This document shows positions 21,001-27,000 of a DNA stretch of 29,235 bases, one piece after another (position 1 is the first letter of the stretch; the number at the start of each line of letters is the position of its first letter). Made by a program: the position numbers. Source of the DNA: Candidatus Aenigmatarchaeota archaeon (GTDB taxonomy: Archaea > Aenigmatarchaeota > Aenigmatarchaeia > QMZP01 > QMZT01); contig JBGPQP010000011.1 of NCBI GenBank assembly GCA_041489155.1, positions 1 to 29,235 on the forward strand, given 5' to 3'.

Positions 21001-24000
21001 GCCTGAAAAAAACGAGGCTTTTCAGGGGAGCGGGAGAGTTCGCCAAGACCAAGACAGTCACTGTCCACGAGCTCGACATATGCTCCCTGCTGAAGATGCT
21101 CGAGGCCTCGGAAAAAAAACAATTTGCGATAATCGGCGTGCCTTTCGGCCTTGAAAAAACAAAGGCAGCAAAAGCAGTGGAGCAGATTCTTACTTCTTTA
21201 TCTTGAGCTCGAGGAAATGCGCGGAGCACGAGAAGCACGGGTCATACGCCCGTATCAACATCTCCAGGAGAAGTTTCACTTTCGCAGCGGGCTTTTTTGA
21301 AATCGATGGCAGGAAGAGCGCTATATCGTCCTCCATCCTTGCCGCGTTCTGTGAAGTGGGCGTTATCACGTTTGCGAATTTCACCCTGCCGTCCCCGCCG
21401 ATCTTGTAATGATGGAAGAGCAGGCCGCGCGGAGCCTCGCAGACGCCGACGCCTTCGCCTTCTTTCGGCCTCGCCTCGAAGTGCTCGTGCTTCATGCCTT
21501 GCCCGTGTTTTTCCAGCAGCGCCAGCGATGCGTCGGCAAAGTGCACCATCTCTATCGCTTGTGCGATGTTGTTGGCGAATGGATTTATGATAGGCGGCCT
21601 CAGGCGCGCGTTTCTGAGCACGCTTCTCGCATCCCTGGAAAGCCTTTCCCAACTGGCATTGACTCTGGGTAGCGAGCCGGTCATGTAGCTCCTGCCGCGC
21701 AGTTTGGCATGCTTGGCGTTGGAATACTCGACCACGTCCTCCAGCAGGTTCTTCATGTAGTCGCGTGGCCTGAATAGCAGGCCGTCGTTGGATGCTATTA
21801 TGCCGTCATAAAGGGCATATTCCTTGTTGCTCTTGAGGCTAATGTGTCTGCATCTGGCCTCCAGTTCCGGCAGCTCTATGCCCGAGAAAATTTTCGCAAC
21901 TTTCAGCGAGAGCTTCTTTATGCTCTCGAGATTCTTCCTCACGTTTTCGATTGTCTTTTTGTCAGGCACCGAGTGGAAGCCGCCCACCGTGGGAGTGACT
22001 GGATGAAGAGCTCGGCCTCCCAGAAGCTTGACTATATCGCTCGCCAGCTTCTGCAGGTCGAGCGCCAGATGAATATACTCGTGTTTCTTCTTGGAAAGCT
22101 CTATCACGTCTTCGAAGCCGAGGTAATCGGGCAGCGCGAAGAAGAACAGATGCGCCGTATGGCTGTGTATGGTGCTGGCGTAGAGCAGCAGCTTGCGCAA
22201 ATCTATGGTCTGCTCGGTGGGAGCGAAGCCTATCGCGTCCTCCACCGCCTTTATCGACGTAAGCGTATGCACGACGGAGCAGATGCCGCATATCTTCTGG
22301 GTTATTATGGGCGCTTCGCGGAAATCCCTGCCCAGCAGCAGGGTCTCGAAATACCTCGAGGCCTCATAAACCTCGAGATGCGTTTTCTTTACCCTGTCGC
22401 CGTCCATCTCTACATTCAGCTTCGCATGACCTTCCAGTTTCGTCAGCTCGTCAAGCGTGAAGCCCCTATGGCTCATTTGTCCACTTCCTTCTGTGCTTCC
22501 TTCGCCTTTTCCGCAGGCGAGGCGTATCTGGTGAAAGCGAATTTGATCTGCTCCCTGCTTATGCCATGCTCCTTCAGGAGATCGACCTCCGCGCCCAGAT
22601 TGCCGTCGGGCAGCGGGCCGCGGCAGCCGTCGCAGGCAGTCCTGCTTGCAGGGCACGGGGCGTTGCAGCCTGCGTAGGTGACGGGACCGAAACAGGCGAT
22701 GCCTTCCTTGAAGAGGCATTTTATCCCGCGCTTCTTGCACTCGACGCAGACGCAGTAGTCCTTCTCGCGCGGCGTTTTGCCGTTGAGCAGGTCAGCTATG
22801 ACGTCGAAGGCCTCGTCCTCGTTTACCGGGCAGCCGCGCATGTAATAGTCGACTTTTACATGCTTGTCTATCGGCTCGACTTCGCTTCTTGAAGGGAACT
22901 TGGTTTCTTTCGGATGGACGGCTTTCCTGTAATCAGATGCGAAGTTTCTCAGCGCAGGGACGCCGCCCCAGCAGGCGCACGTGCCGTAAGCGATAAGGAA
23001 CTGCGTCTTCTCCCTGACGTTCTTCAGCTCCCTTAGTTCGCGTTCAGTCGAAACAGCGCCGTCCATGAACACGACGTCATAACGCCCCTTCCTGTCGTTG
23101 AACTCCTTCAGCATCCAGAAGTTCGCTATTTCGACGTTCTCGAAAACATCGACGAGTTTTCCGCCCAGCAAAAGGAACTGGAAAAAGCAGCCTTTGCACG
23201 AGGTCATGCCTATGAAGGCGACTCTCGCTTTCTTTGCTTTTTTCTTAATGTTCTTTGCCATGTTTATCACCATATCTTCTCCGTCAGCTCGTCGAGTTCG
23301 TCCTTCCTGAAGACAGGTCCGTCAACGCAGACGTATTTGCTCCCTATGTTGCAGTGGCCGCACTTGCCGATTCCGCACTGCATCATGCGCTCGAGCGAGA
23401 AGTAAATCTTGCCGTCTGCTATGCCGATCTTTTTGAACTCCTCGTAAACGTCCCTGAGCATGTTGGTCGGCCCGCAGCATATCGCCACATCTGCCTTGAC
23501 CTTGTATTTCCCGAAGAGCGGCTCCACGTATCCTATATCGCCCTTCCAGGATTTGCCATAGGTATTGGAAACCGTGACAATTGATTCGATCCCGTTCTTG
23601 TGCCATCTTTTCATCCTTTCCTTGAATATCACGTTTGCCGGGCAGTGCGTGCCGTAGAGCAGCCAGACCTTGCCGTAGTCTTCCCGGTTCTTTATTATAT
23701 ATTCAATGACTGCGCCGAGCGGCGCTATCCCCACGCCTCCTGCTATTATGATCAGGTCCTTGCCTTTGAAGCTGTCCATCGGGTACCAGTTGCCGTAGGG
23801 CCCGCGTATTCCTATAGCATCGCCCTTCTTCAGCCTGAACAGCGCTTCGGTCACGCAGCCCGTTCTCTTGACGCTTATTTCGAAGAAGTTCTTTTCGTAG
23901 GGCGACGAGGAGATTGAAATCGGCACCTCGCCGACGCCTAAAACCATGACCTGCAAAAACTGCCCGGGCATGAAGTCCATCTTTGTCTTCCTGTCCCTGA

Positions 24001-27000
24001 ACCTCAGCCTGAAGGTGTAGATGTCTTTGCATTCCTTTTTCACGGCGGTTATGACCGCCACCCTGGGCAGGTACTGGTTACCTTTTTCTGTAATCATATT
24101 CGTCCCTCGCCTTCTTCGCTTCCTCGGTTATGTCTATGTGCGTCATGCACTCCTTGATGCACCGCCCGCAGCCGACGCAGTGGAATTTGTCCTGATTCTG
24201 CTTGCCGTAGAGCAGCTTGTGGTAGAAGAACTGTTTCACCCGCTCGGTCCGCGAATCGCGCGTGCAAGCCCCGCCGGCGACCATGGTGAAAGGCTTCAGC
24301 ATGCAGTAGTTCTGCGTTCTCACTATCTTCCCACCGCTCCTGTCCATGGAGCCCTGGTGGGAGATGTCGAAGCAGTAGCAGGTCGGGCAGACGCTCGTGC
24401 ATGAGCCGCATGAGAGGCAGCGCTTCGCCGTTTCCTCCCAGAATTTGTTGCCAAACGAAGTCGTCATTGCCGCCTCAAGGTTTTCGGTTCTGATATTTTT
24501 CCTGAACTCGAGCTTCGCTCTTTTCACCCTCTGCCCAGTTTTCCTGAACAGTTTTGATCGGGCAATTATCGCCCTGCCTTTCTCGCTTCCTGCCTCGACG
24601 TGGAATTCCCCTCCGTGGTCAGTGAAGAGCAGATCGAAGCCCGTCGCTTCGCACGTATCCATCGATTCGCAAAAGCAGTTTTCATCTGCCTTGCTGCAGT
24701 TAAGCGCGAAAATCAGCGTATTATCCCGTCTCTTCTTGTAATAGGCGTCTGTGTGCCATGAGAGCAGGACCTTGTCGAGAACGTCAAGGCCGTGCGTGTC
24801 GCATGGCCTGACGCCAAAGATTATGCTTTTGTCTCTTGCTCTCTTCTCGCTTATTTTGCCGCCTTTCTGGTATTCCATGAGCACCTCGGCCTCGCGGATG
24901 AAGAACTTCTTGGGCGGGAATTCGGTGTTGAGATAGCCATGGAGGTCGATTTCCTTCGCTGTCTTTATCTCCGCGAAATTGTGCTCGCCGTTCGCCTGCA
25001 CAGGAGCAAAAATCTTGAATTGTTTGAGCAGCGCATCGATGAACCCAGGAAAATCCTGTTTTTTTATAAGGTAGAATCCAGCTTCAGCCATCCCGCTCCC
25101 CAAATCCCCTAATAATAAGATTTGTAATTCGTTTTATTTAAGCTATCGCGGTCAATTAAAAATCATGCATTTCAGAATCGAAGACAGACTCCAGTGGGGC
25201 GAGGATGCTACCTTCATCCCGAACAAGTTCTTTCCTGTCTACAACTGGTTCTACTACAAGGAAGGTTACTCCCGCAGTCTCGTTCTCAACACGCTTGATA
25301 TGTTCAACAGCCCGGCATCCAAAGGCTTCGTGCTTGACCCCTTCTGCGGCGTGGGGACGACTAACCTCGCGTGCCGCGAGCGCGGCATAAACTCCGTCGG
25401 CTTCGACGTCTCGCCGCTCGCGCTTTTCTCTGCAAAAGTAAAGTGCAGGAGCTACGATGCCGGCAGGCTGAAAAGAGCCTTCTCCGTTTTCAGACAGGCG
25501 CGTTTCGAAATGCCGGACAAGGCATGGGTATCAGGCGATGTGAAACGCTTCTTCAACCCGCACACACTCGATGACGTGCTTTTTTTTGCCAAGGAAGTGG
25601 AAAAAATAGACGACGCCGAAACAAGAGACTTCTTCCGCCTCGGCCTTATCACCACGGCGACGCGCTGCTCTTACATGTACAAGGACGGCAGCATGCTGAA
25701 GCGAGTGAAACATCCCGTCCCGCCTTTCAGGAAGGTCTATTTCGCCCGCCTCAAAAGGATGATACACGACCTCGACAAAATCAGGGTGAAGAAATGCAGC
25801 ACCATAATTTCTCACGGCGACGCGAGAAGGCTGAAACTGGAAGATGAAGCGATAGACTGCGTCATAACCTCGCCCCCATACCTGAACAAGATAGAGTACA
25901 CGAAAATCTACAGAGTCGAGGAAGCCCTTTTCTTCCGCTACTTTAGCGAAAGCGGCGGCGAAGGGATTCGCTCGTATATCGGGCACGATGCGGCGTCTGA
26001 AATCATTTTTCCCGACCTGCCAGTATCGTCGAACGCATATTTCTCCGACATGAACCGCATGATGAAAGAGCTTTACCGCGTCTGCAAGCCCGGAGCGAAA
26101 CTGGCGATAGTCGTGGGCAACGGCTGCTTCCCGGACCGCGTCGTGGAAAGCGATTCGCTCCTCGCCCAGCTCGCGAAAGACGCTGGTTTCGAAGTCAAAA
26201 ACATCTTCGTCCTCAACAAGCGCTGGTGCATGCGCAATCGCGTTGAAAAGGTCGGACCGCTGAGAGAGAGTATGATAGTTCTAGAAAAATAAAGTCTGCC
26301 GTGCAACTGCTCTCATTTATCGCAGGCATCAGGGTGAGCTGCTCCTCTTGTTGGTGGAATAAGTAAAATAAATTATTTGTTATTTTGTACTATCCTTTAC
26401 TATGATTCCTACCTTTTTGTGGCAAAGTTCGTGCTCTTTATCATTCTTATCGTCATAATCCTTATGCTTTCTATGCCACTCTTGATGCTCCTTTTGCGTA
26501 ATAACCATTTTTTTCTTAAGTTTTTTGTTCATATGTTTGCTTTGTCTCGTAATTTTAAATAATTATCATTATTTTTCAAGCAGGCATAAATAAAAAATTA
26601 GCTTAATAATTTTCATGCTTGATTGCGAGTCCGTCTTATGGGTATCAAACTTTATGCTAACGTTTTAACAGTAAATTATATGGCCAAAAAAATCGCAATC
26701 CTCGTAATCGGAATAGTTGTCATCGCAATTGTTTCTTTGGCAGTCCTGAAGATGTGGCCGCAAGGGCAGCCGTCTGTAACGAATGCCGATTTCATGCTAC
26801 TCGATGGCGAAGGTCCCAATGCAGGAGGAGAGTTTTCCAGGGAACTGGGCATAAACACGATTCCTATTTATCTTGATGACTGGTCAAAATTCGAACCCGC
26901 AGATGACCAGTGGGACTGGACTGATGCATTCCCGGATAATATAAATGGATACGACCATTCGGTTTTGAGAATTGGCATACTGCACGTACTGGCCTGGAAT

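Follow-up and report, generated by a model that had tools for sequence, protein, structure and literature searches.

The canonical makers of the Fe(CN)2CO group are truly absent from an archaeon of the Candidatus Aenigmatarchaeota, while its [NiFe] hydrogenases have been retained. This conclusion is supported by the all-or-none occurrence of HypD, HypE and HypF, by relatives whose genomes are near complete or made of a single contig, by the conservation of the ligand motifs and by dN/dS values of 0.06-0.08. A tiny archaeon of the symbiont type carries two intact-looking [NiFe] enzymes without the known builders of their cofactor, and a three-gene module, undescribed so far, may substitute for them. 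This module, HypC-c6-EamA, is a conserved, translationally coupled operon that stands in the place of HypD/E/F. We tentatively propose, giving it a probability of about 0.45, a Hyp-independent maturation where a variant of HypC (HypC'), c6 and EamA replace HypD/E/F and where the late steps have been kept.

Two hydrogenases with intact metal ligands

The window, by which we mean the whole stretch of 29,235 nucleotides that was analysed, belongs to a genome of 1.13 Mb (39 contigs, 89.65% complete). On the minus strand of the window, positions 21190-25091 are occupied by a group 3b [NiFe] hydrogenase operon that is complete, retains the two cysteine-pair motifs and a short C-terminal tail, and consists of four overlapping genes in the order beta-gamma-delta-alpha. 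The features of this region are as follows:

24078..25091, minus strand: beta subunit, HydB/ShyB-like, 4Fe-4S dicluster (Pfam Fer4_22, 90.4 bits)
23267..24097, minus strand: gamma subunit, FAD/NAD(P)-binding, 2Fe-2S, diaphorase part (Pfam FAD_binding_6, NAD_binding_1, DHODB_Fe-S_bind)
22473..23273, minus strand: delta, the hydrogenase small subunit (Pfam Oxidored_q6, 87 bits; NCBIfam ShyD, 185.2 bits)
21190..22476, minus strand: alpha, the [NiFe] large subunit, 428 aa (Pfam NiFeSe_Hases, 122.1 bits)
22267..22290, minus strand: N-terminal metal-ligand motif CGICSVVH, alpha residues 63-70 (sequence)
21217-21243, minus strand: C-terminal ligand motif DPCFSCSAH, alpha residues 412-420 (sequence)
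21193-21216, minus strand: eight-residue alpha tail FLELKIKK after DPCFSCSAH (motif and tail together, 21193..21243)
20823..21206, plus strand: divergent HybD-type hydrogenase maturation endopeptidase, 127 aa (sequence, predicted structure and neighbourhood)

The NCBIfam scores of all four subunits lie below the equivalog cut-offs: beta matches ShyB (203.2 bits, positions 7-324 of 334; cut-off 690), gamma matches PRK08345 (237.7 bits) and the HydG-type sulfhydrogenase gamma subunit (197.4 bits), and alpha matches at full length both sulfhydrogenase HydA (303.2 bits, 5-425 of 426 positions) and ShyA (282.9 bits). Beta and gamma are also similar to the AsrA/AsrB-type modules of sulfite reductases. 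The likely start of beta is the ATG at 25091, with a TTG further upstream at 25103; the open reading frame of alpha is listed up to 22740, and the gene most likely starts with the ATG at 22476.

The second enzyme, of the Mbh type (group 4), is split between contigs, its cluster being interrupted between C10 and C34 and the remainder of the complex sitting on C1. Its large subunit displays CGIC...H and DPCFSCTDR, followed by a tail of 29 residues, so that the claim of a preliminary description of this DNA, that two [NiFe] hydrogenases keep their ligand motifs, holds for both. Motifs and tail recur in every 3b large subunit retrieved and in all 14 of group 4 (the N-terminal motif in 7/7 of the 3b proteins, from this genome, G020, G018, G019, G006, G015 and G014), and none of the large subunits examined had a stop codon or had lost a ligand. 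When the orthologues of G018 and G019, two genomes of the same genus, are compared, dN/dS is 0.058 for the 3b large subunit and 0.077 for that of group 4.

By analogy, the alpha tail would be cut off by an endopeptidase once the metal has been inserted. The HybD-like gene is convergent with that of the 3b large subunit and overlaps its 3' end; its orthologues adjoin the same gene in six of six relatives checked, and D15, D56 and H82 are invariant among them. The protein scores below cut-off with both Pfam HycI (16.4 bits, E 0.0083) and TIGR00072 (24.7 bits, E 1.9e-5), and a sequence-profile search of the PDB returned no match for it. Its AlphaFold model (pLDDT 84.2) finds with Foldseek, as its top match, HybD of T. 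kodakarensis (5ija; E 1.7e-7, TM 0.71), and next HybD of E. coli (1cfz). HycI is present as well (59.3 bits), as it is in 21/23 genomes of the family. One endopeptidase may have been kept per enzyme, the HybD-like protein for 3b and HycI for the Mbh-type complex.

Absence of the canonical maturation genes

HypD and HypA have no match in this genome, and the best scores of HypF (29.1 bits, cut-off 466.1), HypE (70.9, cut-off 251.6) and the HypB GTPase (22.1, cut-off 121.2) remain under the thresholds. The matches of the HypF model are Kae1-, acylphosphatase- and Sua5-like pieces, and the best match of the HypE model is ThiL (TIGR01379, 317.9 bits), adjoining ThiC. Searching the genome by tblastn with HypD/E/F/A/B of relatives retrieved only ThiL- and PurM-like sequences; neither HydG nor HydE was found, while HypC is present (54.1 bits). 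Profiles and tblastn thus agree with the absence of HypD/E/F/A reported earlier, and HypB, previously left unsearched, can now be added to the list.

The family sample comprised 23 genomes, the present one included; matches over cut-off were counted, and control genomes responded as expected in each search. The large subunit is found in 22 of them, HypC in 20, HypA in nine and HypB in three. HypD, HypE and HypF occur in three each, the same three, with 380-830 bits. Random gaps would look patchy, and this all-or-none distribution therefore indicates that the absence is real. The preliminary description had HypD in none of five genomes of the genus and in three of 22 remaining family genomes, figures that we reproduced; its count of hydrogenases in 20 of the 22 others has to be raised to 21. 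The pattern is also wider than first noted, as HypD is present in 5/91 genomes of the order and the large subunit in 72/91, with 67 of these 72 lacking HypD. Among the latter are G030 and G059, each made of a single contig, and G020, of the same genus and assembled nearly entirely in one contig of 1,105,251 bp. In G020 the group 4 locus that is broken in the present genome is complete, and it contains no hyp gene.

Across the order, the occurrence of HypC follows that of the hydrogenase: HypC and the large subunit are found together in 65 genomes, the large subunit alone in seven, HypC alone in six and neither in 13. Among kin the accessory set shrinks stepwise, from A-F to A/B/C, then to C only, then to none: HypA is retained in seven family genomes without HypD/E/F, G008 and G009 have HypA and HypB without HypD/E/F, and G018 and G019 have neither HypC nor c6 while keeping both hydrogenases and HycI. 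HydG makes an iron-CO/CN unit from tyrosine, and ten of the 91 genomes of the order encode it (512-585 bits; cut-off 312), nine with an adjacent HypC-HydE fusion and none with HypD. Five genomes with the fusion, including four that encode HydG, were checked for an [FeFe] hydrogenase, and none was found. That carriers of HydG and HypC-HydE dispense with HypD makes a replacement of HypD/E/F plausible in this order.

The HypC-c6-EamA module

The preliminary description listed only HypC and HycI as retained. Both are there, but the HybD-type protease (20823-21206), c6 and EamA have been kept too, kin also retain HypA and HypB, and HypC itself is a variant that keeps the essential N-terminal cysteine and has lost the conserved histidine. 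In the family genomes aligned, this histidine is kept in three of three that have HypD and lost in 14 of 14 that do not. The order HypC-c6-EamA is found at 14 loci of the family. c6 (171 aa; dN/dS 0.056-0.088) is an undescribed protein of HypC fold with three invariant cysteines. Its N-terminal helical domain bears invariant C20 and C63 and one invariant histidine, H88, while the C-terminal half folds like HypC and retains the cysteine (C107) and the histidine (H150) of that fold: superposition of 107-171 on the HypC structure 2z1c aligns 65 residues with an rmsd of 2.2 A (Z 5.6) and places C107 on Cys2 of HypC.

With c6 of G020 as query, no match was found in the three HypD-bearing genomes of the family; in G034 and G070, two HypD-bearing genomes outside it, c6 was not found via the HypC model, which detects it weakly. 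In genus g6, the HypC-c6 locus of G008/G009 shares two flanking gene families with the locus of G007 that carries hypC-hypD. Fused forms join c6 to EamA (P0264, P0260), HypC to c6 (P0268, P0335) and c6 to a protease (P0306), these five being single-member clusters from metagenomes where errors in gene calling or assembly are possible. The module does not adjoin hydrogenase genes in the family of the present genome, whereas in other families it lies inside hydrogenase clusters: in the single-contig G059, Mbh genes, HycI, HypC, c6 and EamA follow one another within 7.8 kb, the trio is similarly arranged in G058 and G081, and HypC-c6 adjoins a 3b operon in G039, with no EamA seen in the 9 kb fetched. 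EamA is a membrane transporter of the drug/metabolite type; the one model it matches, TIGR00950, is generic, and the score of 86.7 bits is below its cut-off of 230. In small genomes, neighbouring genes may stay together without having a common function.

A possible route and its competitors

Building on the absences, conservation, gene linkage, fusions and folds observed, we suggest that HypC' and c6 would form an iron-holding scaffold, as HypC and HypD do elsewhere, from which the large subunit would receive its iron group; nickel would be inserted next, and the tail cut. Hyp enzymes would make neither the CN and CO ligands nor a preformed iron-ligand species. Because c6 has no recognisable catalytic domain, it cannot alone account for CN and CO; we favour a precursor imported, from the host or the surroundings, through the linked EamA, the alternative being some other, non-Hyp enzyme. 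c6 and EamA would then both act in maturation, and a CN/CO-bearing centre would be formed with ligands of imported origin, while the cargo of EamA could be nickel, a chelator or something unrelated. Since G018 and G019 manage without HypC and c6 and their enzymes are under selection, the module is not indispensable there.

The preliminary description held that maturation must either be supplied externally or follow a route not yet known. Its core, canonical makers absent and hydrogenases kept, stands; it omitted a third option, a different metal site or no handling of H2 at all. The first of these ideas, in its pure form, has the Hyp proteins of a host make Fe(CN)2CO, and the symbiont obtain the group, or the Hyp proteins, by cell-cell contact, its HypC and proteases just finishing the work and c6 and EamA having no specific role. 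We consider this rather unlikely. The genome is reduced and, in passages of PMC8407114, its lineage is described as host-dependent. Genes for synthesis have been lost where those for delivery and processing were retained, and the situation of G018 and G019 fits well. However, pure dependence leaves unaccounted for both the fusions and the close, common association of c6 and EamA with HypC, with proteases and with genes for hydrogenases, and sister lineages made up for an identical loss by having their own HydG and HypC-HydE; we know of no case of transfer of the NiFe cofactor or of Hyp proteins between cells. The third option is also improbable in our view. There, the four cysteines would hold another metal site, or the proteins would have another redox role (for instance, ion pumping by the Mbh-like complex and, by beta-gamma, an NAD(P)H-linked oxidoreductase activity on sulfur or ferredoxin), with no need for a Hyp-type synthesis. 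Every known route to the cofactor is indeed missing, beta and gamma have their AsrA/AsrB-type likeness, and strong purifying selection tells us that there is a function without saying which. Yet in the known hydrogenase-like proteins without H2 chemistry, such as Mbx, Ehr and complex I, part or all of the cysteine quartet is gone. Here the four cysteines are all kept, and with them a cleavable tail, a pair of dedicated proteases, HypC and, in kin, HypA/HypB for nickel; these parts have a purpose only as long as metal is inserted and the subunit processed.

The stepwise shrinking of the accessory set might also evoke leftovers on their way out after a recent loss of hyp genes. This is very unlikely, being already contradicted by the signs of selection, a dN/dS of 0.06-0.08 (dS about 0.5) that holds down to the genomes poorest in accessory genes. 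The large subunits examined are also free of stop codons and ligand losses, and they occur without HypD in 67 genomes of the order. Hardly credible, finally, is that hyp genes exist and were missed, through gaps of assembly or binning or through divergence. Each genome is a bin from a metagenome, with completeness rated at 58-96%, the group 4 cluster is broken here, and circularity of the large contig of G020 could not be demonstrated; against this, HypD/E/F are all-or-none in 23 genomes and missing from genomes of one or few contigs, the family's own Hyp proteins retrieve nothing by tblastn, and the intact locus of G020 is without them. Where present, HypD/E/F score so high that sister genera would not drop to zero.

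Comparison with known systems

A close parallel is with the cytosolic 3b sulfhydrogenases of Thermococcales (P. furiosus SHI/SHII, T. kodakarensis Hyh), which are accompanied by HypACDEF and HybD. The beta-gamma-delta-alpha operon, the full-length matches to HydA/ShyA, ShyD, gamma and ShyB, the ligand motifs, the very short tail and the adjacent protease, structurally closest to HybD of T. kodakarensis, are all alike; the scores, in contrast, are far below equivalog cut-offs (e.g. 303 vs 880), HypD, E, F, A and B are missing and HypC is without its conserved histidine. In the canonical Hyp pathway, HypC-HypD provides the scaffold, HypE/HypF the cyanide, HypA/HypB the nickel, and an endopeptidase ends the process. 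The N-terminal cysteine of HypC, the two endopeptidases and the HypA/HypB of kin recall this pathway as known in E. coli and T. kodakarensis, while the absence of HypD/E/F, which PMC9431212 and the abstracts of other papers treat as indispensable in all systems studied, and the presence of c6 and EamA beside HypC depart from it.

The radical-SAM maturases of [FeFe] hydrogenases, HydG/HydE, are represented by ten relatives with a true HydG, nine with HydE adjacent; unlike in the known systems, this HydE is fused to a HypC domain, no [FeFe] hydrogenase was found in 5/5 genomes checked among those with the fusion, and the genome of the window has neither enzyme. A similar puzzle, in partly shared organisms, appears in sections of the work of Greening and co-workers (Cell 2024; PMC11216029): a full maturase set was present in no more than five of the 130 archaeal genomes that encode [FeFe] hydrogenases, and an alternative pathway was proposed. 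The hydrogenase class and the maturases differ from ours, some relatives here having HydG/HydE without [FeFe] hydrogenase, and the word HypC does not occur in the main text of that article. Clostridial acetogens, as treated in parts of PMC9431212, also show an incomplete Hyp set beside hydrogenase genes: they lack HypA/HypB, nickel factors known to be dispensable or replaceable, and possess HypCDEF. The archaeon described here displays the reverse pattern.

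A group 3b hydrogenase and its putative endopeptidase

The stretch is the complete contig C11 (29,235 bp) of a bin, G000, which counts 1.13 Mb in 39 contigs (completeness 89.65%, contamination 1.37%). Two features of the window are of direct concern here:

21190-25091, minus strand: group 3b hydrogenase operon, four overlapping genes in the order beta-gamma-delta-alpha (Pfam, NCBIfam)
20823-21206, plus strand: open reading frame (ORF) of 127 amino acids, putative HybD-like endopeptidase, convergent with the alpha gene and overlapping its 3' end

Each of the four operon genes, diaphorase module included, finds its best match over the full length in a sulfhydrogenase subunit model, and for the alpha (large) subunit the best NCBIfam matches over the whole length are the Thermococcales HydA/ShyA models. 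The subunits score below the equivalog cut-offs of NCBIfam (303.2 against 880, 282.9 against 700, 185.2 against 460 and 203.2 against 690), and, alpha falling so far short (303 against 880), we may understand it as a distant member of the group characterised in Thermococcales; the Pfam family cut-off is passed by this large subunit with 122.1 against 25.8. Its start is most likely the ATG at 22476 (428 amino acids), the upstream GTG of a 516-residue ORF being less favoured. The protein carries the ligand motifs CGICSVVH (residues 63-70) and DPCFSCSAH (412-420), followed by an eight-residue tail, FLELKIKK, and both Cys-pair motifs are kept in seven of seven 3b orthologues. Judged by its genes, the enzyme is a group 3b [NiFe] hydrogenase, with a predicted NiFe(CN)2CO centre and predicted turnover of H2. 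The neighbours of the operon are not hydrogenase-related:

25165-26292, plus strand: DNA N6/N4 methyltransferase
18892-20544, plus strand: aldehyde dehydrogenase (585 bits)
17931-18965, plus strand: FtsZ
15069-17177, plus strand: transglutaminase-like protein

The 127-residue ORF gives weak sequence matches only (Pfam HycI, 16.4 bits, E 0.0083; TIGR00072, 24.7 bits), and a PDB sequence-profile search with its family returned nothing relevant. It is the fold search alone that gave HybD: the AlphaFold model (pLDDT 84.2) has the Thermococcus kodakarensis HybD structure 5ija as its top match (E 1.7e-7, TM 0.71), followed by the structures of Escherichia coli HybD and HycI. In each of the six relatives that were checked, an orthologue adjoins the 3b large subunit, and two Asp and one His are invariant throughout. 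From this modelled fold and its constant position, the ORF reads as the endopeptidase of the 3b enzyme. Each large subunit of G000 has an endopeptidase of its own, the HybD-like fold in the window and HycI, encoded next to the group 4 genes on C34.

A membrane-bound group 4 hydrogenase

The subunit set of an Mbh-type membrane-bound hydrogenase (large, NuoB-, NuoH-, NuoI-like and Mrp-like) is also present in G000, split over two separate loci, one with the large-subunit part (contigs C10 and C34), the other with the membrane and small-subunit part (contig C1). At the former, the large subunit and a NuoH-like protein are encoded at the end of C10, and a NuoI-like ferredoxin with the adjacent HycI (59.3 bits) on the 2.7-kb C34, the junction between the two contigs being an assembly gap within the locus. 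The latter (C1:1406-5027) encodes MbhE-like, MnhB, Oxidored_q2, Proton_antipo_M, Oxidored_q6 (the NuoB-like small subunit) and Complex1_30kDa (NuoC-like) proteins. In G020, a genome of the same genus, the first locus is intact, with large subunit, NuoH-like protein, ferredoxin and HycI; the same large-subunit trio stands alone there, and no hyp gene is found at this locus. The large subunit of G000 lies outside the window:

C10, L091:6526-9402, plus strand: group 4 large subunit, 958 amino acids

It contains DPCFSCTDR, followed by a 29-residue tail. It also harbours a LAGLIDADG intein of about 536 residues (Pfam Intein_splicing over residues 95-630, and LAGLIDADG_3), missing from the orthologues in 13 other genomes and splitting the CGIC motif precisely after CGI, so that the next residue, the second ligand Cys, would be the splicing nucleophile.

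Absence of the canonical maturation genes

HypD, HypE and HypF are the canonical makers of the Fe(CN)2CO unit: HypD serves as an Fe-S scaffold, and HypE and HypF make cyanide out of carbamoyl phosphate. HypA and HypB insert the nickel. HypD has 0 matches in G000, where tblastn with three HypD proteins of the family also gave nothing. For HypF the best score is 29.1 bits against a cut-off of 466.1, and the matching pieces are a 327-residue Kae1-like protein, a 95-residue acylphosphatase and a 207-residue Sua5-like protein, on three different contigs. The candidate for HypE (70.9 bits against 251.6) is ThiL (317.9 bits), as the preliminary description had proposed, and adjoins ThiC. HypA has 0 matches in G000 and exceeds its cut-off in none of the five genomes of the genus. 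For HypB, the best score of the GTPase in G000 is 22.1 against 121.2, and none of the five genus genomes exceeds the cut-off, the ATPase-type Mrp/MinD HypB lying outside this search. With the Hyp proteins of family members as queries, tblastn of G000 produced ThiL- and PurM-like matches only. Control genomes gave the expected matches in every search. Profile searches of the five genomes bear out the earlier claim that HypD, HypE, HypF and HypA are not to be found in the genus.

In the family (23 genomes), HypD, HypE and HypF each occur in three, the identical three (G007, G013 and G022), with 306-826 bits; 22 genomes have a large subunit, 21 HycI, 20 HypC, 9 HypA and 3 HypB. Chance gaps in bins would look patchy, unlike this all-or-none distribution. 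G020, almost whole in one contig of 1,105,251 bp (whose ends, in a check for circularity, did not overlap), has none of HypA, B, D, E and F. In the order (91 genomes, 45 genera) HypD occurs in 5 genomes, all of them with a large subunit, and the large subunit in 72; HypD is missing from 67 of these 72, the single-contig genomes G030 and G059 among them. Genome incompleteness as the cause of the missing hyp genes was rejected in view of the all-or-none pattern, the near-complete relatives, the tblastn searches and the intact G020 locus, and we conclude that the absence of HypD/E/F is real. The statement that two hydrogenases keep intact ligands but lack HypD/E/F thus stands, and it extends, as regards HypD, to 67 of the 72 hydrogenase-bearing genomes of the order.

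A locus search with the HypD of G013 retrieved three related loci only. Identity among the HypD proteins of G013, G007 and G022 is 45-56%, that of G007 (L055:4532-5551) being 45-48% identical to those of its family mates and 51-57% identical to proteins labelled Altiarchaeales, Patescibacteria or Woesearchaeota, which hints that the rare hyp clusters may have been acquired separately.

Maintenance of the hydrogenases

Every large subunit fetched (seven 3b, fourteen group 4) has both Cys pairs and a tail, whether or not its genome contains hyp genes. When G018 is compared with G019, two genomes that have fewer accessory genes than any other, the 3b large subunit shows a dN/dS of 0.058 (dS 0.57) and that of group 4 a dN/dS of 0.077 (dS 0.46); for more distant pairs dS is saturated and dN/dS at most 0.19. 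Such low values indicate that the proteins are under strong constraint. Two further relatives, G008 (10 contigs) and G009, have kept HypA, HypB, HypC and HycI and are missing HypD/E/F, so that the nickel and processing steps persist there in the absence of known iron-ligand synthesis.

A variant HypC, the c6 family and a transporter

The HypC of G000 is a protein of 52 residues (MCLALTGKV..., Pfam 53.7 bits) with the N-terminal Met-Cys and an OB fold; all 17 sequences aligned have both Met1 and Cys2. In HypC, the conserved His of the VHxGFAI motif is an iron ligand. At this place G000 and the 14 HypD-less genomes of the family that were aligned (14/14) have Phe-Asn instead, and the His is retained in the three HypD-bearing ones (3/3). 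We denote the variant HypC'. It is followed by an ORF, c6, which has a His at the equivalent place:

C2, L003:966-1665, minus strand: c6, 171-residue ORF after HypC, then a gene for an EamA transporter

The order HypC-c6-EamA is found at 14 loci of the family (G000 and 13 others), c6 and EamA overlapping by 4 bases in G020. Members of c6 are 43-77% identical to the G000 copy, with C20, C63, H88, C107 and H150 invariant and dN/dS of 0.056-0.088. In the AlphaFold model (pLDDT 88.2) the N-terminal domain is helical and holds two invariant Cys, and the C-terminal half superimposes on HypC 2z1c (Z 5.6; 65 residues at an rmsd of 2.2 A), which places C107 at the position of the essential Cys2. For the N-terminal domain, Foldseek and VIA-align gave no convincing structural match (most rows correspond to the HypC half), and a protein atlas search no usable one. 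The full-length profile retrieves 136 proteins among 5.8 billion, all the named ones labelled Aenigmarchaeota; the N-terminal domain alone retrieves 186 clusters among 1.84 billion representatives, and the HypC-like half accompanies it in 123 of the best 150. We regard c6 as an undescribed protein family.

Fusions, each a singleton, join c6 to EamA (P0264, EamA 141 bits; P0260), HypC to c6 (P0268, P0335) and c6 to a HycI-like protease (P0306, 22.5 bits, narrowly missing the cut-off, 23). Elsewhere in the order, outside this family, hydrogenase clusters contain the HypC-c6-EamA trio: the single-contig G059 has, within 7.8 kb, MbhH, MbhJ, MbhK, large subunit, NuoH-like protein, ferredoxin, HycI, HypC, c6 and EamA, in an order to which that of G058 is similar; G081 has 3b delta-alpha, the HybD-like gene and EamA-c6-HypC; in G039 HypC-c6 accompanies the 3b operon and the HybD-like gene, and the stretch fetched contains no EamA. 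Order-wide, 21 genomes have HypC and a large-subunit gene no more than about 6 kb apart. The three HypD-bearing genomes of the family, like G018 and G019, gave no match to the c6 of G020. Within genus g6, the surroundings of hypC-hypD in G007 and of HypC-c6 in G008 and G009 have two flanking gene families in common, which is suggestive of replacement at one locus.

One idea was that the ornithine carbamoyltransferase encoded just upstream of HypC in G000 might provide the carbamoyl group for cyanide; it was set aside because this gene is unlinked in G008, G009 and four loci of other families, and because the domains of the enzyme are those of an ordinary ornithine carbamoyltransferase.

HydG and a HypC-HydE fusion in relatives

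An in-frame fusion joins HypC to a HydE-like radical-SAM enzyme in G006, of the same family (L039:2953-3570), the HydE part spanning a contig break and HydG following it. Frames of 422-566 residues with an N-terminal HypC match occur in nine further genomes of the order, and loci L085, L087, L088 and L089 are among those with HypC-HydE and an adjacent HydG. The fusion family comprises 1555 proteins at E <= 0.001, of which the best 120 all have HypC and radical-SAM domains; some of these 120 are labelled Aenigmarchaeota, Woesearchaeota, Altiarchaeota, Margulisiibacteriota or Nitrospirae, and 11 are metagenomic proteins of 805-946 residues. One long protein, P0017, is a triple fusion in which a HydG-like half comes after HypC-HydE; another, P0111, is labelled Nitrospirae.

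HydG itself is found in 10 of the 91 genomes of the order (512-585 bits against a cut-off of 312), on the same contig as the fusion in eight. All ten have a [NiFe] large subunit and none has HypD; [FeFe] hydrogenase was found in none of five fusion-bearing genomes checked, four of them with HydG. HydG makes an iron-CO/CN unit, and a HydG-based supply for the [NiFe] enzymes of these relatives is therefore likely. The 72 hydrogenase-bearing genomes of the order fall into 5 with HypD, 10 with HydG and 57, including G000, with neither. No HydG is found in the genus, and a search for HydE in G000 (tblastn and a profile of 60 fusion proteins) met unrelated radical-SAM genes only, with 43 bits at best; the HydG/HydE route is accordingly rejected for G000, neither gene being found there.

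In G073 (L087:2883-4099), the genes directly after HypC-HydE and HydG resemble those of the nickel regulator NikR and the metal transporter ZupT; G000 has a ZupT-like gene on contig C5 and no NikR-like match. Contigs C22 (9,936 bp, with three radical-SAM ORFs of about 460 residues close together) and C28 (4,066 bp) of G000 have a G+C content of 0.395 and 0.398, against 0.44-0.56 for the other contigs, and may be foreign or mis-binned DNA.

A possible route to the metal centre, and its rivals

As far as sequences can tell, the observation is confirmed and extended, and the genomic case is strong. The preliminary description, in proposing maturation from outside or by an unknown route, was right in substance, and incomplete in that the HybD-like protease and the c6-EamA module had been overlooked. 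The reading that we favour, with a probability of about 0.45 for the whole, is that HypC' and c6 would together serve as the scaffold for the iron, as HypC-HypD does elsewhere, and would load the large subunits. A route that dispenses with HypE and HypF would provide CN and CO, or else an iron-ligand unit already assembled, import through the linked EamA transporter being the favoured source. Nickel would enter after loading of the iron unit, and the tails would then be cut by the HybD-like protease in the 3b enzyme and by HycI in the Mbh enzyme. Several facts count against this reading: c6 has no catalytic domain, EamA matches a generic transporter model only and could serve nickel or chelator traffic, G018 and G019 have neither HypC nor c6, and the c6 fusions are all singletons. 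We would put forward more tentatively, as a somewhat doubtful generalisation, that [NiFe] centres can be made without HypD/E/F by at least two undescribed routes in one order. In the HypC'-c6-EamA route a Cys-rich protein of HypC fold would replace HypD, the transporter importing a ligand precursor or the ready iron-ligand unit; in the other, HydG and HypC-HydE would supply an Fe-CO/CN unit to the [NiFe] enzyme where an organism is devoid of [FeFe] hydrogenase.

Other explanations have to be weighed against the HypC'-c6 scaffold. The cofactor might be supplied purely by a host, and the enzymes might work without a CN/CO centre; we hold both to be unlikely, and to the same degree. That the hydrogenases are decaying relics is very improbable, the dN/dS of both large subunits being so low precisely in the genomes with the fewest accessory genes, and that hyp genes were simply missed is hardly credible when HypD/E/F are all-or-none in 23 genomes and single-contig genomes have no HypD either.

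Significance and known systems

To our knowledge, HypC, D, E and F are regarded as universal and indispensable for every [NiFe] hydrogenase. The 67 genomes without HypD among 72 with a hydrogenase challenge this universality, since selection still maintains both the enzymes and the late steps of maturation. Concrete, clonable candidates are at hand, the HypC'-c6-EamA operon and, in relatives, HydG with the HypC-HydE fusion. Should either route work, it would open the question of the source of the CO ligand in anaerobes, allow a smaller gene set for [NiFe] hydrogenase production in heterologous hosts, and alter what can be deduced about hydrogen metabolism when the genomes of DPANN archaea and other reduced symbionts are interpreted. 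Import of the ligands or of the iron unit, if it takes place, would make the symbiont metabolically dependent on its host or community in a new way.

In the literature accessible to us, which includes few subscription journals, we found no description of organisms that naturally have [NiFe] hydrogenases and no HypCDEF, of c6 or of HypC fused to HydE, nor any match for [NiFe] hydrogenase maturation genes in Patescibacteria. Group 3b and group 4 hydrogenases have been reported in Aenigmarchaeota, in a paper that does not contain the word 'maturation' (PMC8407114), and a paper on Woesearchaeota contains none of the Hyp terms (PMC8421398). A case described elsewhere is the opposite, and milder, HypA and HypB being missing and HypCDEF present (PMC9431212). 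The nearest parallel is that of the archaeal [FeFe] hydrogenases, most of which, in a survey whose main text does not mention HypC, lack HydEFG, an alternative pathway having been proposed for them (PMC11216029).
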